From the NCBI GenBank assembly GCA_035289485.1, contig DATDXA010000031.1, positions 27,807 through 91,806 on the forward strand: a stretch of 64,000 nucleotides of DNA. The letters run 5' to 3'. The translations under genes were made by a program, and so were the position numbers. The notes below the pieces were generated by a model. The model did not search any database and had not been told where the DNA came from. It saw only the letters and a program-made list of their open reading frames with translations. Below, piece after piece: positions 7,010 through 60,805 of the stretch. The first letter of the stretch is position 1; every line of letters begins with the position of its first letter. Source of the DNA: an archaeon (GTDB taxonomy: Archaea; Iainarchaeota; Iainarchaeia; Iainarchaeales; Iainarchaeaceae).

Positions 7010-7939
7010 TTACGGATAATGGCATCCCCATATCGCGGTTCCTGCACCCGAGCATGCCCACCACTGTACCCCCGCAGAGGTATACGAATCAAATACATAC
7101 CCTCCATTCGTGCATGTATTAGGGGAACTGCCGCATGCAGGAATCGGCATGCAAGTGCCGCCATAATAATTGTAACCGAATCCGCAACCGCAGCTATTTG
7201 GCGGAACCCAAAATGATGGCGAGGTGCAAGTAACCTTTGCTACACAAGTGCCCGATAAAAATACGAAATTCGGGTTGTCGCATTCGCAAGTGGTGCCGTA
7301 AGAATCAACATGCGCTCCTGCAGGGCATGTAAACGGCGTAACAGGAACCACTGGTGCGGATGTACCGGGGCAGTCGCTGTTTTTCACTTCCACTGCGCCC
7401 TTTTCCATTGAGATTTCCATTGTTTTGTTCTGGGAATCGAATGCATACGCCGCCACATCATATGCGCCGCATGGGGCATCGCCCGGCACATTGCACACAT
7501 ACGAGACCGTGCTGCCATTGGGTTGCGCCACATTAGCAGGGTAGCTGTACCCCCCTGGGTTTTGGTCAGCGCAGAAACTATAGCCTGCGGACTTTTGCGA
7601 ACTCACAATCACGCCGTATCTTTTCACCTTCGAGCCCACATCGAATTTCACCACAAATGAACTACTATACCCAGAGCCGCTTCCGGAGCCTCCTACTCCT
7701 GTCATAATGGCCTTTTTGCATAATGTCGGGCTCGTTATCCTAATCCCATCCGGCGGCACCACAAGGCTGCTTTTTCCGGCATCAAAGTTGCAGTTGGTCA
7801 GGTCCTCTCCAGTTCCTATGGTATTGAGTGCCAGAATAGTAATAATCACAAGGACAGCCACGGCTCCTCCAATTAGCAGCAGGTATTCGGTCGCTGTCTG
7901 AGCACGTTTTTTGGCAAAAAAACCCTTCAATTCTGGCAT
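7010..7939 (-). CDS. Pilin-like protein with class III signal peptide, paralog B, carrying a Cys-rich C-terminal module
   Basis: KKRAQTATEYLLLIGGAVAVLVI (Q at +1, E at +5, hydrophobic helix). Conserved core CNFD...PPDGIRIT...CKK, a GGSGSGSG linker, and EKGAVEVKNSDCP. More than 15 Cys in the last 120 aa. Confidence 0.7.
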   Translation of the reverse strand: MPELKGFFAKKRAQTATEYLLLIGGAVAVLVIITILALNTIGTGEDLTNCNFDAGKSSLVVPPDGIRITSPTLCKKAIMTGVGGSGSGSGYSSSFVVKFDVGSKVKRYGVIVSSQKSAGYSFCADQNPGGYSYPANVAQPNGSTVSYVCNVPGDAPCGAYDVAAYAFDSQNKTMEISMEKGAVEVKNSDCPGTSAPVVPVTPFTCPAGAHVDSYGTTCECDNPNFVFLSGTCVAKVTCTSPSFWVPPNSCGCGFGYNYYGGTCMPIPACGSSPNTCTNGGYVFDSYTSAGVQWWACSGAGTAIWGCHYP

Positions 7940-21353: not shown

Positions 21354-24300
21354 TTACTTCAACCTTACCGAATCCAAATTCCTTATCGCCTGCGAGCTTA
21401 TCCCGAACTTTTGCGAAAAGTGCTTTGCAAGCTCAACACATTTCTCGGCTTCGCCGTGATCTGTAAGTATTCTCTTCGGCTTGGGCTTTAGGTTTCTCAC
21501 ATACGCAGAGAGCTGCATGCGATCAGAGTGCCCTGAAAACCCATCAAGCCTTTCAATCCTAAGATTCACATTCAGTTTTCTTGTCCTTCCGGCATTATCC
21601 GTAATCGGCAGGCTCTTTACTCCGCTTAGAACCTTTCTTCCAAGCGAGCCTTCACCCTGGTAACCTACAAAAGCAAGTGTATTGACCGGGTTCTCCGCGA
21701 GGCGGTAGAAGTACTGAACGCTTGCTCCGCCAGTTAGCATTCCGCTAGAAGCCAGAATTATTGCTTTCCCGTTCTGTGCAATTGCGTCCCTGTCCTCCGG
21801 CTTTGCAACCTGGAAAATATCTGAAGTGAAGGGCGAATCGTTTTGCAAAACCCTCTTCTGAACTCCCGTGCGCAAATACTCAGGATATGCCGTGTGTATT
21901 GCCGAGCTCTCCTTGGTCATTCCATCAATATACACTTTGACTTCAGGGTCAATTAGGCCTTTTCTGTAATAATTCTCAATTACAAGCTGAATCTCCTGCG
22001 CCCTTCCGACAGCAAACACGGGCACCAAAATAGAGCCGCCCTGATTCACAGTTTCTTGTATGATTTTCAAAAACCTCGCTTCCGTGTCCTCACGCGCGGT
22101 TTGAATGTCATCCTTTCCGCCGTATGTGCTCTCAACAATAAGGGTTTCAAGCCTTGGATAATTTATGTCAACATTATTGAAGAGCCTGCTAAAGCCGTAC
22201 TTGATGTCTGCGCTGTAAACCAAGTTGTGCGCCCCCTCTCCAATATGAAGGTGCACTGATGCGCTTCCGAGCACATGTGCCGCATTATGGAATGTAAGCC
22301 TCATATCCGGCGCAATATCAGTAACTTCGCGGTAATCGCGTGTGATGCAGTACTTGAGCATTTCCTTAACATCGCGCTCAGAATAAGGCGCTTCCTTATT
22401 CTCCTTTGCCATGATGTCAAGATAGTCAAAGAGAAGCAGCGCGCCAAGATCACGTGTCGGCTCGGTGTTGTGAAGGCAAATTGGCGCTTCCCCGCCAACA
22501 AAATTCTGGTCATCTTCAACCGAAAAGTCGTAGACAAACCCATTAGTTGGCTCTACCATATTAATCTCTGTAATCGGGAGGAATGCCAGGTCGGTTTCTG
22601 AAAACTCCATTAACTTTTCCCTGGTTTCCTGCGCCACCAAAGAAGTGCCATTGGCACTTTTTACCCAATTCTTATTTAGAAGTTCTGCAAGCCTTTGCTT
22701 GGTGACATGCTTTCTATTTTTCAGCCTGTGGTAAAACCACTCTTGCCCAAAACCCACTTCTTTTAAGGGCAAAATATCGCACCCTTTCTTATCTAATCTT
22801 CTTTTTCCAAAGAACTCGGATAAATTTATTGTGATGCTGTAAACCGTATTTTTTGTTTTTGCTTTCGGCATCGCAATAGTAAATTTGCTGTATGTAAAGC
22901 CGAGTTGCGAGCATAAATATGACAAATCCGAGGCCAAATCCTTGCTGACAGTTGTTGCGGTAGCTGTCTTGTTCAGTTGGTTTATTGTGCCATCACCTTC
23001 AAAATAGGCTTCCAGAAAAGCTAACTTTAGTTCGTCCCCGACGTTGAATACTATTTCTGGTATTCTTTTACTTGTTGCTTTTTTATAGCCTGGGAAAAAT
23101 TCTTTCTTGAATACGTCCAACAAATTTTTAGAATTTATTGCCACCCTAAGCCTTGTTTCCTGGCTTATGCTATCTTTTGCCTCAATGTCGAACACTTTTC
23201 TAACCGCATTTTTAAGTTCCTCTACAATTCCCCTGTCTTTGAGCCCGAAGGTGAGCCTTATCCCCCTTTTCTCAAAATGACCTTCTGCAGTAAAATATCC
23301 TAAAATTTTCATGAGGTCTGTGTTCACGCTGATTTTGCCCGGGAGCTTGATTTTGGATCCTTTGCCATTGTATTGCTCCAAGCCAATCGTTTCAATTTTT
23401 TCATTTCCTGACGGGAGTTTGTGCGGGGCAATAAGATAGTCCCCAATCTTTAATTCGCTGACTTTGGCATCAGAGATTTTTCCATTTTTGAGGACAAATA
23501 CGCTGTGGGATCCCGTTACCTTTACCTTTCTTTTGTTCCTTGTCACAATTTCAAATATTTTGCCTTCAACTTTGTGCCTTATTACTTTTTTGACTTTCTT
23601 AAAATTAATTTTCTTGTCTTTTGAGAAAGCAGGCACGTATAACTCCTGATTTGGCTGTGCCGCCATGTATTCGTTTTCAGGATAAAAATCCACATTCTTC
23701 GAGTTGCCGATGATTTTATCTATCACTGCGCCAATTTTTTCTATTTTTATGCGGCCATTTTCCTTTATCATAACCGGTTCTGCATAGTCCACACTCATGT
23801 ACACCGGGCCGCGGTAACCCAGTTTGAACAGGTAAGGCAAAAATCCTATGTGGTCCATGTGCGTGTGGCTAATCACAACCGCATCAAGCTCATTTATCGG
23901 GAAGCGAATCGCGTCAAGATAGGGAAATGCGTCCTCAGAGTTTTGCGCCGCAACATTGATTCCACAGTCCATTAATATTTTTGTCCTGCGGGTTTCAAGC
24001 ATTATGCAGCTTCTTCCAACCTGCCTAAATCCTCCAAGAGGAGTTAGCCTAATCCAGCTCGGGCCCGGCTTTTCAGAATAAATTTTCTTTGCAGTTTCCT
24101 GCAAAATCTTTTTGCGCTCGGAAGCATATTTCACAAGGTGGTGCCTAATCCCGCGCAATATTTCACTTGGCGAAGTCGGGCTTCTCAAAATTTTAGGGGT
24201 CCATCCGGTTTGCAGTATAATTTCTTTTGTTGTCATTCCGCCCTTGCCAATTACAAGGCCGGGCTTAAGCGCTTCAATTACAACTTCACTAAAAGCTTCC

Positions 24301-24581
24301 ATGAACTGAATGTCCGCGATTTTGGCGTCCTCAGGGACAATTTTCATTATCTTTTCGCGCGCCTCTTTTTCCTCAAGCAGCAGAGATTTGTCCGCGCGGA
24401 TATTCACTTTCTTCTTTAGCTGGTGCGCAATCGCGCGCACATAATCCTCGTTCTCGTGGAAAGCGCGGGGATTTTTTGTATAAATCGCAATCTCAGGCCC
24501 TTCAAGGTCGACTGATGAGACTTCGGCTTCCTTTGGCACGATTGCCGCAACAGTTTCCTTTACTTCCTTTAGATATTCCAT
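21354..24581 (-). CDS. aCPSF1 / FttA (KH-KH, metallo-beta-lactamase, beta-CASP, RMMBL ribonuclease; archaeal transcription termination factor) interrupted by an intein
   Basis: N-terminal KH domains (VIGKGGMTTKEI), HTHMDH zinc motif, and GPVYM then intein then TEPTRDL, which aligns with ...GPVYCTRPTRDL... of intein-free aCPSF1. C-terminal beta-CASP/RMMBL region. 1075 aa = 259 + 446 + 370. Confidence 0.9.
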   Translation of the reverse strand: MEYLKEVKETVAAIVPKEAEVSSVDLEGPEIAIYTKNPRAFHENEDYVRAIAHQLKKKVNIRADKSLLLEEKEAREKIMKIVPEDAKIADIQFMEAFSEVVIEALKPGLVIGKGGMTTKEIILQTGWTPKILRSPTSPSEILRGIRHHLVKYASERKKILQETAKKIYSEKPGPSWIRLTPLGGFRQVGRSCIMLETRRTKILMDCGINVAAQNSEDAFPYLDAIRFPINELDAVVISHTHMDHIGFLPYLFKLGYRGPVYMSVDYAEPVMIKENGRIKIEKIGAVIDKIIGNSKNVDFYPENEYMAAQPNQELYVPAFSKDKKINFKKVKKVIRHKVEGKIFEIVTRNKRKVKVTGSHSVFVLKNGKISDAKVSELKIGDYLIAPHKLPSGNEKIETIGLEQYNGKGSKIKLPGKISVNTDLMKILGYFTAEGHFEKRGIRLTFGLKDRGIVEELKNAVRKVFDIEAKDSISQETRLRVAINSKNLLDVFKKEFFPGYKKATSKRIPEIVFNVGDELKLAFLEAYFEGDGTINQLNKTATATTVSKDLASDLSYLCSQLGFTYSKFTIAMPKAKTKNTVYSITINLSEFFGKRRLDKKGCDILPLKEVGFGQEWFYHRLKNRKHVTKQRLAELLNKNWVKSANGTSLVAQETREKLMEFSETDLAFLPITEINMVEPTNGFVYDFSVEDDQNFVGGEAPICLHNTEPTRDLGALLLFDYLDIMAKENKEAPYSERDVKEMLKYCITRDYREVTDIAPDMRLTFHNAAHVLGSASVHLHIGEGAHNLVYSADIKYGFSRLFNNVDINYPRLETLIVESTYGGKDDIQTAREDTEARFLKIIQETVNQGGSILVPVFAVGRAQEIQLVIENYYRKGLIDPEVKVYIDGMTKESSAIHTAYPEYLRTGVQKRVLQNDSPFTSDIFQVAKPEDRDAIAQNGKAIILASSGMLTGGASVQYFYRLAENPVNTLAFVGYQGEGSLGRKVLSGVKSLPITDNAGRTRKLNVNLRIERLDGFSGHSDRMQLSAYVRNLKPKPKRILTDHGEAEKCVELAKHFSQKFGISSQAIRNLDSVRLK
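22467..23804 (-). mobile_element. Intein (446 aa, Ser1...His-Asn, +1 Thr) with LAGLIDADG homing-endonuclease domain, inserted in aCPSF1
   Basis: Begins SVDYAEPVMI and ends ICLHN followed by T. LAGLIDADG motifs ILGYFTAEGHF and LKLAFLEAYFEGDGTI. AT-richer than the exteins. Confidence 0.8.
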
Positions 24582-24706
24582 AAGCTCAACTTCAGTCCGT
24601 TCAGATTTTTCACAATAATTTTTAGTATGCGGGCGATTTTTGCAAATTTTTTAATAAGGAAAATTCGTTAAATGTAAAATATCGGATTCATCCAAGTGCG
24701 CCGCAT

Positions 24707-33281: not shown

Positions 33282-35618
33282 TTACGCCGCCTTCTCAGCA
33301 ATTTCCTTCTCAATAAGCGACCTTATCTTCTCCGCATCGAACCCGAGCTTAATGAGCCTTGTCTGGCCCTTGATTCCTTTCCCGGAATTTGTCGAGTGTA
33401 TGAGCCCGTACATTTCAAGTTCGGAGATGTATTCGCGGTACCAGCGCGCGCTCACCGTGGTTTCCTTGAATTTTTTTGAAATGCGGCAGTACTCATCGTA
33501 AATTTCCCCAGAGAACAAAACCCCTTCCTCGCTCTCGCCGGTTATTTTTTGCATCGGTTTTTTGTTCAGCGCAAGCGCCGCAATCGCATACAAAACAAGC
33601 TGCTGCTGCTCAGGAAGAGTAGAAACCATATTGAAAATTATCTCCTCTTCTACGGTTTTCTTCGCCTTTTTAACTTCGGCATCCGTAACTTTGCCAAGCG
33701 ATTTCTTATCGGCAATCTCACCTGCTCGCAGCATGAGCATTACCGCAGTGCGCGCATCCCCAGATTCCTGCGCTGCCACTGCTGCCGCGAGATGTATTGC
33801 GGATTCTTCAATGGTATTTGGCCGAAAAGCCGATTGCACGCGTTGCTTTATGATTTCCGTGAGCTCCTGCGCATTATATGGCGGGAACACAAGCTCGTGC
33901 TCGCAGAGGCTGCTTTTGGTGCGCGGGTCAAGCCTGTCTTTAAACATCACATTGTTTGAAATGCCAATTATTGATATGCCGCCATCCTTTATTTCATCGT
34001 TCGCGCGCGTGAGGCCATAAATTAATTCATCCAGGTCCTTTACTTTATCAACTTCATCCAGTACGAGTATCAGTTGCTTTCCCCTGCGCGCGTAATCAAC
34101 CAGCTTTTCGTAAATGAAAGCCGCGGAAAAGCCCAAAAAATTCTCCTCAGGGTACAATTCCTTTACAATCTTTATGAGGATGCGGTATTTGCTGTTGTGA
34201 TTTCTGCAGTTGACGTAATTTCCCTCAATTGGCATGTTCTTTGAGATTGCAAAATCAAGAAGCTGCTGCATCACATGCTTTGTAACCGAAGTTTTCCCGG
34301 TATTATGGGAAATAATTCCATTTGCGATAAAATTATGGTTTTTTGGAACCGTCAAATCATACACAAAATCTTCAAATGCCTCTTCAATCTTTGCAATTTT
34401 TGAGGCGGAAAAGCCCGTTTCATTAATTGGCATTGTTTTGACATACTTTGTAATCATTATCCGCAGCCTTTCTTGTTTTACAGTGCTATAAAACCCTATT
34501 TTATTGTAAAATTTGAATATGTTTTCCTGTCCCTGTATATATAGTCGGTAGGCGTCAAATATTTTTCCGTTTAATTTGGCTGGCTTGCTTCTGACTTTGC
34601 ATCTGATTCCTTCCTGGTATAAAATATATGCGACCTGCTGCAGGAATTTTTTTGAATTCGAGTAGTACTCTATCTGAAATGTTTGCTGGCTTACAGTGCC
34701 ATCGCCGGAAAACAAAGCCTTCAAAAACTCCCTTTGGATTGTGGGTGAGGCTTGTAAAATCGATTCGGGAACTTCAATAATCCGGCTTTTCTCTCCAAAA
34801 GGGACTCCAAGTGAGTTCAGAGTTTGGCACGCGTTTTGTGAAATCATGTTGACGTGTGCACACCTGTCCTTTGGATAAATTATTGACGGGGTTCCGCCAA
34901 AGACTTTTGCCAAATCCTCCTGCACTTTTTTAAGCAAATTAGCATCAATGCTGAAATATCTATATCTTTGCCTGTCCGCATTATAGTAATAACCTCTGCC
35001 ATCCTTTGCTTTTTTCTGTTTTCTATTAAGACTTCCGTCGCTTAAAGTAAAACCCAGCAATCTGGCCAGTGCAAGTGGCATTTCATGGTCATTTAAGGAT
35101 GGCAAATCATATCCAAGTGCAAGTTCATCAGCTATCTTCAATTGATTGGACTTTTTCCACTCCATATCCGAAGTTAAAAGAGGATGGTCCCGTGTAACAG
35201 TCAACTCATAGCCGTTTTCAAGTGTTATTTTAAGCAATTTGTCATTATTCTTGTATTTCAGGAAGACAAAATCAGACCACTCATATTTTTTTATTTTCTT
35301 GTTGAATGTGGCCACTAAATCAGTTAGCATATCAACGTCTCTGATTTTTTTCCACCCATTACTCGTGTAAACAAGGCTGTCGCCTGCAATGCAACCCGTT
35401 TTTCCGTAAATGAAAACATTGTCGGATTTCTTGCCGCGGATTGATTCTGAGAGGATTGAGGAGATTTGTTCTATATACTTGTCGCGGAAAGGGAGTATTT
35501 TAGGAGTATAATGCGTGGTTATGATGTTTCTGTCCAAAAAAATGGTTTCGCGCGCGAACTCGCGCTCAAAAATGTTCACACGTTCAGAACTAACCGTAGA
35601 TACAGAAGTATTTTGCAA
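33282..35618 (-). CDS. Orc1/Cdc6 replication initiator interrupted by an intein in the Walker A P-loop. TTG start as tracked.
   Basis: Extein reads ...NVFIYGKTG then intein then TGKTSVTKHV (P-loop GKTGTGKTS once spliced). LVLDEVD Walker B and a C-terminal winged helix. 778 aa = 75 + 364 + 339. Confidence 0.9.
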   Translation of the reverse strand: MQNTSVSTVSSERVNIFEREFARETIFLDRNIITTHYTPKILPFRDKYIEQISSILSESIRGKKSDNVFIYGKTGCIAGDSLVYTSNGWKKIRDVDMLTDLVATFNKKIKKYEWSDFVFLKYKNNDKLLKITLENGYELTVTRDHPLLTSDMEWKKSNQLKIADELALGYDLPSLNDHEMPLALARLLGFTLSDGSLNRKQKKAKDGRGYYYNADRQRYRYFSIDANLLKKVQEDLAKVFGGTPSIIYPKDRCAHVNMISQNACQTLNSLGVPFGEKSRIIEVPESILQASPTIQREFLKALFSGDGTVSQQTFQIEYYSNSKKFLQQVAYILYQEGIRCKVRSKPAKLNGKIFDAYRLYIQGQENIFKFYNKIGFYSTVKQERLRIMITKYVKTMPINETGFSASKIAKIEEAFEDFVYDLTVPKNHNFIANGIISHNTGKTSVTKHVMQQLLDFAISKNMPIEGNYVNCRNHNSKYRILIKIVKELYPEENFLGFSAAFIYEKLVDYARRGKQLILVLDEVDKVKDLDELIYGLTRANDEIKDGGISIIGISNNVMFKDRLDPRTKSSLCEHELVFPPYNAQELTEIIKQRVQSAFRPNTIEESAIHLAAAVAAQESGDARTAVMLMLRAGEIADKKSLGKVTDAEVKKAKKTVEEEIIFNMVSTLPEQQQLVLYAIAALALNKKPMQKITGESEEGVLFSGEIYDEYCRISKKFKETTVSARWYREYISELEMYGLIHSTNSGKGIKGQTRLIKLGFDAEKIRSLIEKEIAEKAA
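34302..35393 (-). mobile_element. Intein (364 aa, Cys1...His-Asn, +1 Thr) with LAGLIDADG homing-endonuclease domain, inserted in Orc1/Cdc6
   Basis: Starts CIAGDSLVYTSNG and ends NGIISHN followed by T. LAGLIDADG motifs LARLLGFTLSDGSL and FLKALFSGDGTV. AT-rich relative to exteins. Confidence 0.8.
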
Positions 35619-35674
35619 AATTTTAATCCCCCGAACTCACTTGGACTGAACTGGATTTAAGGGAATTGAGTTGT

Positions 35675-55643: not shown

Positions 55644-56792
55644 TTACCCAAACAGCCCCTTGAACTTTCCAAAGAAATCCTTTCTCTCTTTTGCGATTCC
55701 CTCTTCTTTTGCAAGCTTTTCAAGCAGCTCTTTCTCGCGCTTTGAGAGCTTTTCCGGAGTTTTTACAATGACTTTCACATACTGGTCGCCGTACTCGTTT
55801 CTCTCAAGGAACTTGATTCCCTTATCAGCCATGCGAAAAATGGTTCCCGATTGCGTCCCCGCAGGAATCTTTAGCTTCGCTTTCCCCTTAAGCGTTGGGA
55901 CTTCAATTGTCGCTCCCAGAGCCGCCTCGCCAAATGAGAGCGGAGCTTCCATGTAAATATCCTCCTCATCTCGCCTAAAAATCGTGTGAGGTTCGACAAA
56001 AATAACCGCAATTATATCGCCGCGCGCAGCCCCGTGCTCTCCTGAATGCCCCTGCCCCGCAAGGCGCAGGTGCTGGCCCGTATCAATTCCTTCCGGAATA
56101 GTAATCGTGATTTTTTTCTTCCTGTGAACTTTCCCTGAGCCGCCGCATTCCTTGCACGGGTCAGTTATAATTTCTCCAGCGCCTCTGCATTTCCTGCACG
56201 TGCCCTGAGTCTGTATAACCCCCAAAAATGTCCTGCGTGTCTGCCTCTCAACTCCAGACCCGCCGCACTGCTCGCATGTTTTTTTCCCGGAAGATGATTT
56301 TGCCCCGCTTCCCTTGCATACCTCGCACTCAACAATAACATCAATCTCAATTTCCTTTTTCGCGCCGAATGCCGCCTCTTCAAATTCAAGATTGAGCCTT
56401 ACTGCAATGTCCTCTCCGCGCGAAGGGCCCCGTCTCCCGCCGCCGAACTGGTTGCCAAAAATGTCAGAGAAACCTCTCCCGAAGCCAAACGATTCGAAAA
56501 TATCCGAAAAATCGCCAAAGTCCGCGCCTTCTCCGCCAAAACCTGAAGCGCCCTGAAATCTTTCAGATTGCTCTCCGAACTGGTCGTAGTTGCGGCGCTT
56601 TTGCTCATCGCCAAGAATGGAATAAGCGTGCTGAACTTCTTTGAACTTGTCTTCCGCGCCCTTGTCCTTGTTCAAATCAGGGTGGTATTTCTTTGCAAGG
56701 TCCTTGTACGCCTTCTTGATGTCCTCTTGCGTGGCGCCGCGTGAGACACCAAGAGTTGCATAGTAGTCCTTTGCCATTTCAAACAACTTCAC
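55644..56792 (-). CDS. dnaJ: Chaperone DnaJ (Hsp40)
   Basis: J-domain with HPD (KKYHPDLNKDKGAE), Gly/Phe-rich linker, four CxxCxGxG zinc-finger repeats, C-terminal domain. Confidence 0.9.
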   Translation of the reverse strand: MKLFEMAKDYYATLGVSRGATQEDIKKAYKDLAKKYHPDLNKDKGAEDKFKEVQHAYSILGDEQKRRNYDQFGEQSERFQGASGFGGEGADFGDFSDIFESFGFGRGFSDIFGNQFGGGRRGPSRGEDIAVRLNLEFEEAAFGAKKEIEIDVIVECEVCKGSGAKSSSGKKTCEQCGGSGVERQTRRTFLGVIQTQGTCRKCRGAGEIITDPCKECGGSGKVHRKKKITITIPEGIDTGQHLRLAGQGHSGEHGAARGDIIAVIFVEPHTIFRRDEEDIYMEAPLSFGEAALGATIEVPTLKGKAKLKIPAGTQSGTIFRMADKGIKFLERNEYGDQYVKVIVKTPEKLSKREKELLEKLAKEEGIAKERKDFFGKFKGLFG

Positions 56793-56860: not shown

Positions 56861-58723
56861 TTACTTTTTCTCTTCGGTAAAATCCGCGTCAACGACATTG
56901 TCATCTCCGCCCTTTCCCTGCCCTTTGCTTCCTTTTGCAGAACCTGTGCCATTGGGATTCGCGCCCTGCGATGCGTTCTTGTACATCTCAGTTGATGCCG
57001 CCTGCACTTCGCTATTGAGCGCTTCAAATGAGGATTTTATCTTCTCCAAATCCTTTGGCTCGGTTCCGAGCAGCTTTTTGAGCTCCTCGTTTTTGGCCTT
57101 GATTGAATTTACCTTATCTTCCGGGAATTTGCCCTTCATTTCCGTGAGCATCTTCTCGGTGCTGTAGACAAAGGCATCTGCATTGTTCACGGTTTCCACT
57201 TCCTCGCGCCTCTTTTTATCCTCGCTCTCGTGCGCCTCCGCATCTTTCTTCATTTTTTCTATTTCCTGCTCCGAAAGCTTTTGTGACGCCGTAATCTTGA
57301 CGCTCTGCTCTTTTCCCGTGCCAAGGTCCTTTGCGGCAACGTGCACAATTCCATTTGCATCTATGTCAAATGTTACCTCAACTTGCGGCACTCCGCGGGG
57401 CGCTGGAGGAATTCCAGCGAGTTGGAATCTTCCAAGTGTTTTGTTTCCAGAAACCATTTGACGCTCTCCCTGCAGCACATGTATATCGACTGCCGGCTGA
57501 TTATCCGAAGCGGTTGAAAACACCTGGCTCTTCTTTGTTGGGATTGTCGTGTTTCTTTCGATGAGTTTTGTGAAAACTCCGCCCAAGGTTTCGATTCCAA
57601 GGCTTAGCGGAGTGACATCAAGAAGCAAAACATCTTTCACTTCCCCTGCAAGTACGCCCGCTTGTATCGCAGCGCCCATTGCAACACATTCCATTGGGTC
57701 CAGGCCTCTTTCAACTTTTGAGCCAATTTCCTTCTCAACAAATTGCTGAACAATTGGCATTCTTGTTGGACCTCCCACAAGAACAATTTTGCTAATGTCG
57801 GCAGGAGTCATCTTTGCGTCCGCAAGTGCCTGCTGCACAGGTTTTGCGCACCTTTTTACTATTGGTCCAATGAGCTCTTCGAGTTTAGCCCTGTTTATTT
57901 TCATCTGAAGGTGCTTTGGCCCCTCATTTGTCGCCGTGATATATGGAAGATTTATTTCAGTCTCGACAACAGTTGAGAGCTCGATTTTTGCCTTCTCCGC
58001 GGCCTCATTGACCCTCTGCATCGCTGTGGTATCCTTCTTAAGATCAAATCCTTCTTTTGATTTGAATTCGCCTATGATATAATTTACAAGCGCCTCATCC
58101 ATATCGCGCCCGCCAAGCTGTGTGTCTCCTGAAGTTGAACGAACCTCAAACACTCCGTTCTCATATTCCATTATGGTAACATCAAGCGTTCCGCCGCCCA
58201 AATCGAATACCAATATTTTGAAATTCTGGCTCTTCTTGTCAAGGCCGTATGCCATCGAAGCGGCTGTTGGCTCATTTACAATCCTTACAACCTCAAGCCC
58301 TGCAATAGAACCAGCGTCCTTTGTTGCCTGCCTTTGGTTGTCATCAAAATACGCAGGCACAGTTATCACTGCCTTGCTTATTTTTTCGCCCAAAAACTCC
58401 TCTGCATCCTTTTTTATTTTTTGCAGCACGAATGCCGAAAGCTGCTGTGGCGTGTAGTCCTTGTCTCCGGCTTTATACTTGAAATCGGTTCCCATTTTCC
58501 TCTTGAACCCAAAAAATGTCCTGTCCGCATTGGAAACAGCCTGCCTGCGTGCGGGCTCTCCTACCAGAAGCTGCCCGTCTTTTGTGAATGCAACAACGCT
58601 TGGGAATGCCTTCCCATAAACCGTGTTCCCCTCTGCCGAAGGGATTATTTTTGGCTTTCCGCCCTCAAGAAATGCCGCCGCACTGTTGCTTGTTCCGAGG
58701 TCCACGCCTATAGTCTTTGCCAT
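56861..58723 (-). CDS. dnaK: Chaperone DnaK (Hsp70)
   Basis: [23 protein letters not shown], and [14 protein letters not shown]. 620 aa. Confidence 0.95.
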
Positions 58724-59685
58724 TATACCATCTCCTTTTTTTCAATTTCTAAAACCACAGTCGATTTTTTGCTGTGTTTTAAATGCAACCCGATTAATTC
58801 TGCCCATTTACCTATGTGGCTTTTTGGAACACCCAAACGATATATTTGTTTTCGAGCAATAACCGGTCGGCCCCCTAAACAGTATGGCTCCACGCGCTTT
58901 TTAATTTCGATAATAGAATTTTTTATTCCCTTAAAATTTAAATATTCAGAAATTCTGTCAAGCAATCTTTTGTCCGCATTATACAAATAAACGTGAATGT
59001 AATTTCCCTGCCTTAATACGCTTCCTTCGGCGTCCCATAATCCGGCTAAAAATCTTGGCGCAAGCCCCTCCTCTGAAAAAATATAATCCAGTGTGTCTTC
59101 TGAAATTGTTCCGTTCTTTTTAATGAGCGCCGCAATTTTGACGCTTGAAAGCCTTAGTTTCCATAACCCGTCATCCCTGTAAACTTCCTGCACAGTCCCG
59201 TATTTTTCCATCGTTGCCTTCAAATATTCTTTCATCCCCTTATCCTTGTTGAATGCCTCAACCATGAATTTTTGTACTGCTCCGTCTCCTATACAAAACC
59301 CAATCATATATGCCAAGTCTTCGCCAATTTTTATTGCCGAAAGATTTTTTGCAGAATTACCAAATGCAATTACCGTTGACCCATCGAAATTTGCCGGGAA
59401 CATTTCTGTGCTCACATGCCTTCTTACCAATGGAATGCCCAAGTTCCTAAACCAGCAGCCCAAAATCGAATCCGGGACATTGAGTATTTTTTCAATCGTT
59501 GTGATATCGTTTTTTGGGTAAAGCTTTGCCAGCAACGCGGCAATATTCTCTTTTCCAATAATTTTTTTGATTGCCCTGAAATCATGGTTCACCCGTAAAT
59601 CATTTATTTTCTTTATTGTTTCACTCTCGTGCTCCGTAAGCACAGGATTCAAAATCGCAGTTTTATAATTAACCATGAATTTCAC
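58723..59685 (-). CDS. Free-standing double-motif LAGLIDADG homing endonuclease inserted between grpE and dnaK
   Basis: [14 protein letters not shown] and [21 protein letters not shown] motifs. 320 aa. AT-rich relative to neighbours. Overlaps the grpE 3' end by 17 nt and abuts the dnaK start. Confidence 0.75.
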
Positions 59686-60241
59686 CAGATTTCTTGTTAA
59701 CCTTCACCTTTGCAGGCCGCAGAACTTTCCCGTTCAGTGTATATCCTTTTCCAAGCTCCTCAAGTATTTCCTCATCCTGTTTTGATTCATCCTTTCCTGT
59801 CATAAGAACTTCATGCAGCGTGTGGTCGAATTTTTTCCCGACTGTTTCAATGCGCCTCACCCCGTTCCGCTCAAGCGTCTTGATGAACTGCGCCCTTAAA
59901 ACCTCAAATCCCTTTTTCATCTCCTCATTGCCGGATTTTGCCGCCTGCCGCAGCCCCTGCTCGACCGAATCTACAAGCGGGAGAAAATCCTCAATTGATT
60001 TCGCGCCCGCGAATTTTCTAAAATCCTCCTTCTCCCGCTCTATGCGCTTTGCAGCGTTCTCAAACTCCGCCTGCAGGCGCTGGAGTGTGTCCTTGTAATC
60101 ATCCGCAATTTTTTTTAGTTCTCCAATCTGCTTTTCGTACTGCTCCCTGATTTTCAATTCAGCCTCGCTGAGCGCATGCTCCTTGTTTTTTGCGCCCTCT
60201 ATGTGGCCTTTTTGCCTGTTCTTTTCTGCCTCATTTTCCAC
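59669..60241 (-). CDS. grpE: Nucleotide exchange factor GrpE
   Basis: Long N-terminal coiled-coil plus C-terminal beta domain (DHTLHEVLM...GYTLNGKVLRPAKV). Confidence 0.85.
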   Translation of the reverse strand: MENEAEKNRQKGHIEGAKNKEHALSEAELKIREQYEKQIGELKKIADDYKDTLQRLQAEFENAAKRIEREKEDFRKFAGAKSIEDFLPLVDSVEQGLRQAAKSGNEEMKKGFEVLRAQFIKTLERNGVRRIETVGKKFDHTLHEVLMTGKDESKQDEEILEELGKGYTLNGKVLRPAKVKVNKKSGEIHG

Positions 60242-60265: not shown

Positions 60266-60805
60266 TTGACTAAATTGTTTAATCTTTTACAATCTTTTTT
60301 AATCAAAACGTTTTTAAACCTTTCAACGGCATTTTTTCTCATGAGCGAAACCGAGCAGCAAGCGCCTGGCCAGATGAGGCGGGCATCTTTTAAGATTGTA
60401 ATAAGAAAAGTCGAGCAGCCATTCTCCCAAAGCCCGCTTGATGAGCTGAACTGGATTTGCCAATCGCTCGGCTTTATGGAGCCAATTGACAGGGACAAAA
60501 CCGCTTCAAGCATCTTTAGAGAAATTATCAAGGCCACCGAAAGCGGGGAAGCGCTCTCTTCAAGTGCGATTGCAGATCGCGTGGGGATGAGCCGCGGAGC
60601 TATCATAAACCATCTAAACAATCTCATGCGCTCTGGGCTGATTACCCGCGATGGCAGATTCTACTCCGCCCGCTCGCGCTCAATTTACCGCACAATCGAG
60701 GAAATCGAAGAGGATATCGAGCGCATATTTACCAAAATGAAAAGGACTGCCATGGCCCTAGATGAGGAACTTGGCATAAAAGCGGAAAACTCCAAGCGCG
60801 AATAG
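60266..60805 (+). CDS. HTH/winged-helix transcriptional regulator divergent from grpE (candidate heat-shock operon regulator)
   Basis: SSSAIADRVGMSRGAIINHLNNLMRSGLITRDGRFY helix-turn-helix plus wing. Probable start MSETEQQ near 60340. Confidence 0.5.
   Translation: MTKLFNLLQSFLIKTFLNLSTAFFLMSETEQQAPGQMRRASFKIVIRKVEQPFSQSPLDELNWICQSLGFMEPIDRDKTASSIFREIIKATESGEALSSSAIADRVGMSRGAIINHLNNLMRSGLITRDGRFYSARSRSIYRTIEEIEEDIERIFTKMKRTAMALDEELGIKAENSKRE

Follow-up and report, generated by a model that had tools for sequence, protein, structure and literature searches.

We analyzed a 64,000-nucleotide stretch of an archaeal contig (DATDXA010000031.1, Iainarchaeaceae; this whole stretch is referred to as the window), in which a free-standing gene of the LAGLIDADG homing endonuclease type sits inside a grpE-dnaK-dnaJ chaperone operon. 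The list of open reading frames (ORFs) placed its coding sequence at 58723..59676 on the reverse (-) strand, giving 317 aa from an ATG at 59676, with a GTG at 59685 (-) as an alternative start that gives 320 aa and a TAA stop at 58725-58723 (-). The operon genes lie on the same strand. Upstream, grpE occupies 59669..60241 (-) (Pfam GrpE, E = 5.5e-42), and its 3' end overlaps the endonuclease start. The Hsp70 gene dnaK, which is the host and the probable target of the element, occupies 56861..58723 (-) (Pfam HSP70, E = 1.9e-226). Downstream, dnaJ was assigned to 55644..56792 (-) from its ORF translation and from the DnaJ Pfam families found on its orthologs in related loci.

A sequence-only reading of this DNA had described a 320-aa ORF with two LAGLIDADG motifs between grpE and dnaK, lower in GC (guanine plus cytosine) content than its neighbors, overlapping grpE by 17 nt and ending 1 nt into the dnaK start codon. 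The motifs translate as they were quoted, and Pfam, fold and flanks bore out a free-standing LAGLIDADG homing endonuclease gene inside the operon. The GC content was 0.387 for the endonuclease (38.7% vs about 48% for the neighbors), 0.482 for grpE, 0.479 for dnaK, 0.503 for dnaJ and 0.458 for the whole window. At the downstream junction, read directly, the endonuclease TAA and the dnaK ATG (58723-58721) have one base in common. The 17-nt overlap with grpE applies to the GTG at 59685. The ATG at 59676 (MVNYK...) is the likelier start, because the closest homologs and the public 317-aa protein P0001 share the N-terminus that it gives, and from this start the overlap is 8 nt. A Shine-Dalgarno (SD) sequence GGAG for dnaK lies within the last endonuclease codons (58732..58735 (-)), 8 nt before the dnaK ATG, and the junction that contains it reads TTGAAAAAAAGGAGATGGTATAATG. 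The arrangement GGAGG-stop-ATG likewise closes the endonuclease gene in other carrier loci.

The predicted enzyme

The ORF matched Pfam PF14528 (LAGLIDADG_3) over two stretches with E = 2.6e-14 and 53.7 bits, against a cut-off of 22.5 bits. In the translation, motif 1 (14 residues, 59275..59316 (-)) holds the predicted catalytic Asp134 in GDG, and motif 2 (12 residues, 59017..59052 (-)) holds the predicted catalytic Glu220 in DAEG. We collected 26 close homologs, all of full length (307-351 aa) and 43-100% identical. The residues invariant among them were Y126, G129, F130, G133, D134 and G135 in motif 1 and F212, A214, W217, D218, E220 and G221 in motif 2, so that both predicted catalytic residues are conserved down to 43% identity. 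An AlphaFold2 (AF2) model built on these homologs had a pLDDT of 87 and a pTM of 0.79. Its top PDB matches by Foldseek were all LAGLIDADG proteins (I-DmoI with E = 1e-9, PI-SceI and I-Tsp061I), with WhiA more distant. By motif, profile and pseudo-dimeric alpha-beta-beta-alpha-beta-beta-alpha fold the protein is a single-chain, two-motif LAGLIDADG homing endonuclease. Enzymes of this type cut long sites of about 18-22 bp in the presence of Mg and leave 4-nt 3' overhangs.

The nuclease core is preceded by an N-terminal five-helix domain (residues 18-81 in the 320-aa numbering, 59443..59634 (-)) with the conserved pattern IExIxGVPDSTLxxWFKxLGI. A three-stranded beta segment seen in the AF2 secondary structure (residues 91-119, 59329..59415 (-)) joins this domain to the core. 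The five-helix domain is a putative extra helix-turn-helix (HTH) DNA-binding domain. Judged from sequence and model, the fold and chemistry would be those of an ordinary LAGLIDADG enzyme, and the protein is predicted to be an active nuclease.

The two intein-borne LAGLIDADG enzymes mentioned in the sequence-only reading were found in the Cdc6/Orc1 gene (33285-35636 (-)) and in the gene of the beta-CASP RNase FttA/aCPSF1 (21357-24650 (-)), each intein carrying a LAGLIDADG_3 endonuclease domain. With the dnaK-linked gene, the 64-kb window has three LAGLIDADG elements, which belong to at least two unrelated lineages.

Two such inteins lie in the same window, and at the level of sequence the ORF matched intein endonucleases best in PDB and NCBIfam (PI-PfuI, 1dq3, and those of the RNA polymerase A'' and ribonucleotide reductase inteins). 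Both facts would suit a recent escape, in which the Cdc6/Orc1 or FttA intein endonuclease shed its splicing domains and inserted into the operon. We find this origin, which had also been suggested from the sequence, scarcely credible. The window inteins matched the profile of the dnaK-linked family only at E = 3e-4 and 0.6, and Pfam, which recognized the splicing domain in the Cdc6 and FttA inteins, found no Hint or Intein_splicing domain in the ORF. The family also has its own N-terminal domain and free-standing archaeal relatives of the same architecture. An exhaustive profile search returned few 50%-identity clusters for the dnaK-linked family and, further out, full-length relatives (E 1e-34 to 1e-22) that have the same N-terminal domain and intact GDG/WDADG motifs. 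The dnaK element appears to belong to this broader set of free-standing archaeal LAGLIDADG genes and not to derive from a window intein.

Nor is the gene itself intein-encoded, since its ORF is closed by a stop of its own and DnaK runs complete from Met1. No Rfam family and no tRNA gene turned up when the window was scanned for them, and an intron or RNA element was rejected on this ground; the setting is a protein-coding operon, and the gene is not encoded in a group I or archaeal intron.

Carriage and the 5' end of dnaK

All family members with readable flanks (from four context look-ups and 25 GTDB species loci) showed the order grpE-LAG-dnaK, where LAG is the LAGLIDADG gene. Few of the close homologs carry names, and those named at source were labelled Diapherotrites or uncultured archaeon. 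The GTDB records of the carriers were named Iainarchaeum, Micrarchaeota, Woesearchaeota and Nanoarchaeia, with two 'bacterial' contigs in addition. These contigs, L013 (DATILO010000065.1, 'Candidatus Binatia bacterium') and L025 (DATJLP010000012.1, 'Candidatus Acidoferrum sp.'), both contain an archaeal DPANN-type grpE-LAG-dnaK-dnaJ operon and were probably mis-binned into bacterial metagenome-assembled genomes (MAGs).

The endonuclease ORF was unbroken in every complete carrier locus. Its stop fell between about -47 and +14 nt relative to the start of dnaK, given crude start calls, and the grpE-side junction varied between -53 and +521 nt across the carrier loci. Mean pairwise identity among carriers was 48% for the endonuclease, 48% for DnaJ and 36% for GrpE. 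In locus L009 (~7373-7552), near the contig end, dnaK follows an intact endonuclease and is interrupted by an in-frame TAA near codon 19 (…AAAAFL, stop, GG). The cause could be an error in sequencing or assembly, or the gene may be truly disrupted.

Comparison of grpE-dnaK junctions in related genomes had been proposed as a check, and empty junctions were found, both in the close relative L065 described below and in a non-carrier set of 80 metagenome loci whose DnaK was closest to that of the window (63-80% identity). Searches by tblastn and with an unfiltered family hidden Markov model detected the endonuclease in 0/80 of these loci, and the gap between grpE and dnaK was shorter than 300 nt in 56/80. 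For DnaK, GrpE, DnaJ and regulator, several non-carriers came closer to the window than any of the carrier loci did, and for most carriers the nearest DnaK in the sample was that of a non-carrier. Carriers and non-carriers interleaved throughout the DnaK neighbor-joining tree. With the 5' patch of the gene removed, the tree (26 carriers among 105 tips) required 19 Fitch changes in carriage compared with 23.3 at random, with a bootstrap range of 18-22. An empty allele of the window's own species was not found among these loci, the nearest non-carriers being L034 and L040 with a DnaK identity of about 80%.

The grpE-dnaK gaps of the endonuclease-free loci L051, L055, L060, L061, L062 and L069 hold other small genes in varying combinations, namely a CxxCxxCC (PF03692) protein, a DUF3467 protein and an ORF of about 110 aa without assignment. 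In these operons the gap is an accessory slot of variable content. Decayed endonucleases were ruled out in the other large gaps, which contain unrelated small ORFs instead; L100, described below, was the exception.

To locate sequence differences that go with carriage, we back-translated the DnaK alignment (620 codons) and scanned it for association between carriage and site. The five most carriage-associated sites of the 620 codons all fell in codons 5-7. At the third positions of codons 6-10, Cramer's V averaged 0.41, compared with 0.16 gene-wide. Among 7-codon segments, the one beginning at codon 5 ranked highest: it had 2.68 extra mismatches to the non-carrier consensus, compared with a mean of 0.27 (sd 0.60) over the gene, and the next six best segments all overlapped this peak. 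Overall GC at third codon positions (GC3) was equal between carriers and non-carriers.

The non-carrier consensus for codons 5-11 was ATA GGA ATT GAT TTA GGA ACA. Every carrier had at least 5 mismatches to it (mean 6.4), and the non-carrier mean was 3.7. The window's dnaK is of the carrier type, ATA GGC GTG GAC CTC GGA ACA (58691..58711 (-)), with 6 mismatches, and a search of the whole window for the consensus at up to 3 mismatches returned no copy. The difference extended to the protein: codon 7 encoded Ile in 78/78 non-carriers and Val or Cys in 10/26 carriers (Fisher p = 2e-7). The re-coded patch of the carriers is presumably resistant to cleavage.

In some carriers the endonuclease opens with a fossil dnaK N-terminus. 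The protein sequences (with a slash at the end of the dnaK-like part) read MAKVIGIDL/DSTEK in L003, MEKISGIDL/TPEN in L015 and MPAEKII-DF/DHE in L022. The fossil DNA is of the non-carrier type (GGA ATC GAT TTG and GGA ATA GAT TTG), and the working dnaK about 1 kb downstream in the fossil loci reads GGC ATA GAC CTC GGC and GGG ATA GAT CTC GGC. These fossil starts indicate that the insertion took place within the dnaK reading frame, in most cases behind codon 9 (Leu), and that the element gave the gene a new start downstream of itself. No fossil dnaK start was visible in the window, where the endonuclease start overlaps the end of grpE.

The sequence-only reading had considered a homing element aimed at the grpE-dnaK junction. 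The homing element stands, but the target must be moved to the dnaK 5' coding end, and the description as a plain intergenic insert gives way to an element that appears to have entered the dnaK frame and to have brought a replacement start and ribosome-binding site. The evidence on balance favors dnaK codons ~5-11 (IGIDLGT), not the intergenic junction, as the target.

The closest pair of alleles consisted of L020, a carrier from the groundwater MAG NC_groundwater_567, and L065, an empty JGI contig of Ga0209542. Their flanks were ~95-96% identical overall by BLAST and ~97-98% identical near the junction, and an insert of ~0.9 kb was present in L020 and absent from L065. In the first 52 nt of dnaK the pair differed at 20 positions (35%), in contrast to 42 mismatches (2.4%) over the 1743 nt that follow (binomial p = 2e-18). 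Within the 600 nt upstream there were 20 mismatches. The L020 endonuclease starts ATG AGT AAG ATA TTA, close to the first five dnaK codons of L065 (ATG AGT AAG ATT TTA), and the ribosome-binding site ahead of the two starts is identical. Had L065 arisen from an L020-like allele by plain deletion of the gene, it would still have the L020-type patch; it therefore represents the uninvaded or a re-converted state, and the patch travels together with the endonuclease gene. The same layout was seen, more weakly, in L014 vs L057/L064 (~85%) and in L024 vs L050 (~79%).

A decayed copy was found in L100, where an 88-aa remnant between grpE and dnaK matched the family profile with E = 8.5e-19. Still present in the remnant are 60 residues at the N-terminus, part of motif 1 in which GDG has become GNG, and the 3' end with GGAGG-stop-ATG. 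Large internal deletions have removed ~220 codons, and a single frame remains open from the start to the 3' end. The dnaK of L100 is still of the carrier type (GGC GTG GAT). The mobile-element characters seen across the loci are the same site, presence/absence polymorphism, an altered flank and, in a single example, a degenerate copy. Sensitive empty sites, intact carriers and a remnant are the stages expected of the homing-endonuclease cycle (PMC8393795).

A further endonuclease-free locus, L040 (4440-4503, compared with 58723-58745 of the window), has a carrier-type dnaK 5' patch, GTA GGC ATC GAC CTC GGC ACC, with 8 mismatches to the non-carrier consensus. Its spacer, AAAAAAAGGAGTGATG, resembles the last 20 nt of the window's endonuclease gene, and L040 may be an allele left after precise loss of the endonuclease.

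The L100 remnant bears on the idea of an inactive passenger, in which the nuclease is dead and the ORF is kept since its translation feeds initiation at the embedded dnaK SD, so that its removal would impair dnaK expression. That SD does lie inside the last endonuclease codons in the window and in other carriers, and the remnant is still one frame to the same 3' end and SD, as a need for read-through predicts. Selection for read-through, however, would not fix both motifs, D134, E220 and ~36 other columns over more than 50% divergence and would not preserve a nuclease fold that AF2 models with confidence. In non-carriers a plain spacer suffices. We therefore regard a dead passenger as decidedly improbable.

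A conserved domesticated operon gene was the first view taken, as all homologs were syntenic, and it was dropped when the closest DnaK loci proved to be without the gene. Its fuller version is a WhiA- or HO-like component of the operon, either a DNA-binding regulator or a stress-induced nuclease, inherited vertically with simple losses. Strict synteny in all carriers, intact ORFs with a mean identity equal to that of DnaJ and above that of GrpE, a divergence that correlates positively with that of DnaK, and the tight translational coupling to dnaK are all compatible with it. The added HTH-like domain also recalls WhiA, which combines a LAGLIDADG scaffold with an HTH-type domain and is among the structural matches (3hyi, E = 3e-6). 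In WhiA, however, the catalytic residues are degenerate and lost, the HTH domain is C-terminal, and the protein is universal in its lineages. The present family differs in that its predicted catalytic Asp and Glu do not vary, its helical domain lies at the N-terminus and carriage is patchy, and the Pfam WhiA model scored 13.9 bits, below its cut-off of 23.2.

Conserved synteny combined with degenerate motifs had been named in advance as the pattern of a domesticated gene. The homologs in carriers are indeed syntenic in the operon, but D134 and E220 leave the motifs non-degenerate. The gene is missing from an operon with ~97-98% identical flanks as well as from all 80 of the closest-DnaK loci, it is distributed almost randomly on the DnaK tree, and a decayed remnant exists. 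Loss alone cannot turn an L020-like allele into one with the sensitive-type 52-nt patch of L065. A more obvious operon regulator is also at hand in a separate, conserved and divergent winged-helix gene that occurs independently of the endonuclease. Domestication, which the sequence-only reading had listed among its options, is thus not favored, and we consider it unlikely.

The winged-helix gene lies at 60266..60805 (+), matches Pfam HTH_20, HTH_24 and HTH_5, and in most related loci stands upstream in divergent orientation, irrespective of endonuclease carriage. It is ArsR/Lrs14-like and was also seen at L001, L003, L008 and L034-L072. It is a candidate heat-shock regulator of the grpE-dnaK-dnaJ operon. 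The listed TTG start of this ORF is probably too far upstream, as homology begins only near residue 38.

A proposed homing cassette

We consider it likely that the free-standing single-chain LAGLIDADG gene is a site-specific selfish homing cassette of DPANN-type dnaK operons. In the mechanism that we propose, the I-DmoI-like double LAGLIDADG core and the N-terminal HTH-like domain would together recognize ~20 bp at the dnaK 5' coding end. In endonuclease-free alleles the recognized site would be roughly ATA GGA ATT GAT TTA/GGA ACA, which encodes the universally conserved IGIDLGT phosphate-binding loop, with a predicted cut near the codon 9/10 boundary (slash). Repair from a carrier allele would then copy in the cassette, consisting of the endonuclease ORF, its stop, a new SD and a re-coded dnaK start, typically GGC GTG/ATA GAC CTC GGS, that should no longer be cleavable. 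The old dnaK start would stay upstream and, in several lineages, become the endonuclease's own start. The conserved dnaK body would provide the downstream homology, while the poorly conserved upstream side would be resolved variably, which would account for both the variable grpE-side junctions and the fossils. Transcription of the endonuclease would come from the heat-shock operon, and its translation would proceed in tandem with that of grpE and dnaK, with stress-linked expression as a likely consequence, and DnaK would be kept intact without intron or intein splicing.

Several points weigh against this account. The GC3 of the patch minus that of the gene was -0.20 in non-carriers, whose dnaK 5' end is AT-rich, and +0.09 in carriers, which are at the average of the gene, and part of this codon-bias signal could come from relaxed constraint on the start region of a translationally coupled gene. 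Relaxed constraint leaves unexplained the Ile-to-Val/Cys changes, the 35% divergence between L020 and L065, and the fossils. The recognition site is derived from comparative patterns, and its cleavage is a prediction. A single clean insertion point is not proven, as the left junctions vary by lineage. Long-term intactness and conservation equal to that of DnaJ would also be expected of a domesticated gene, and the closest sampled endonucleases were at most 68% identical, with no donor of a recent transfer found among them.

Endonuclease and DnaK identities were also correlated (r = 0.37, Mantel p = 4e-4), so that much of the endonuclease history may be vertical with repeated loss. As a test of vertical against horizontal descent we rejected the identity-matrix correlation, since r = 0.37 resembles that of true operon-gene pairs and is non-discriminating. 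Finally, the carriers came from GTDB species representatives and the non-carriers from JGI contigs; these differing collections exaggerate the interleaving and preclude an estimate of frequency. The evidence from L020/L065 and the other close pairs is independent of this bias.

Relatives outside the dnaK-linked family were found at other sites. Hadarchaeal relatives have a constant position, next to a 234-aa ORF and an SMC/Rad50-like gene (L032 54-1170; L114 4001-5020; L115 3838-4704). A frameshift divides the copy in L032, the one in L115 is shorter at its N-terminus, and this clade looks like another site-specific element in varied states of decay. In a distant relative of the same architecture, P0040 (L116 597-1556), the coding sequence ends a single base ahead of a cbiT-like methyltransferase start (gene at 1557-2183). 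This layout, in which the stop abuts the next start, echoes the dnaK arrangement, and no fossil host N-terminus was visible in L116. L116 and the Hadarchaeal neighbors hint that the strategy is not limited to dnaK. It is possible, though we hold it only tentatively and rather doubt it, that a 'start-capturing' homing cassette is a general archaeal strategy, one that invades the first codons of an essential gene, takes its promoter and start, and supplies in exchange a nuclease-resistant 5' end from the donor.

If that reading holds, the cassette's location in a heat-shock operon would lead to stress-induced homing and to the movement of short dnaK segments between DPANN lineages. A selfish element together with mosaic dnaK 5' ends in DPANN calls for caution in Hsp70 phylogeny and in the inference of horizontal transfer. 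The comparative data yield a concrete prediction, a sensitive site of ~21 bp with natural resistant variants and two predicted catalytic residues, and the monomeric LAGLIDADG core with its HTH-like domain may serve as a scaffold for rare-cutting nucleases.

Comparison with known systems

Archaeal homing endonucleases are known mainly from rRNA and tRNA introns and from inteins, where splicing hides the insertion. The present element suggests a different route to harmlessness, in which a LAGLIDADG gene seems to persist in an essential gene by replacing its start. In the literature on LAGLIDADG or homing endonucleases with dnaK, grpE or DPANN, we found no description of a dnaK-linked element.

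The protein shares the monomeric two-motif LAGLIDADG fold with I-DmoI, I-Tsp061I and the PI-SceI and PI-PfuI domains (I-DmoI E = 1e-9; target TM ~0.67-0.72), and an archaeal origin with the I-DmoI-type enzymes. The catalytic Asp D21 (motif 1) and Glu E117 (motif 2) of I-DmoI are presumably the counterparts of D134 and E220. Compared with I-DmoI, it has an extra N-terminal domain of ~110 aa and a sequence identity of ~20%. The I-DmoI-type enzymes reside in rRNA introns or inteins, and splicing spares their hosts; the gene described here is free-standing, and the 5' end of its host gene appears to be replaced.

In the intronless homing of phages (T4 Seg and Mob), endonuclease genes spread into empty alleles together with their flanks, and the carrier is resistant through sequence differences. 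As in those systems, a free-standing endonuclease gene here adjoins or lies within a conserved gene. The phage enzymes are of the GIY-YIG, HNH or EndoVII type and lie between genes, in contrast to a LAGLIDADG enzyme on an archaeal chromosome that seems to have entered the first codons in frame. F-CphI of cyanophage S-PM2 is another free-standing phage homing endonuclease (PMC6083498).

Mitochondrial homing ORFs can fuse in frame to host sequence and duplicate or replace a gene terminus, as in the N-terminal duplication of Tremella fuciformis (PMC8393795). The present element is similar in using the upstream coding sequence and translation signals of its host, with the donor replacing the gene end. 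The mitochondrial cases involve organellar introns or free-standing ORFs, whereas here there is no intron (Rfam was empty), the setting is an archaeal chromosome, the probable target is dnaK, and a new SD and start are provided for the displaced gene. Many DPANN possess a bacterial DnaK-DnaJ-GrpE system (PMC8204110). Compared with all of these systems, the aspects that appear new are the cellular DPANN host, a target in the dnaK phosphate loop, the replacement of a start without splicing, and the added N-terminal domain.

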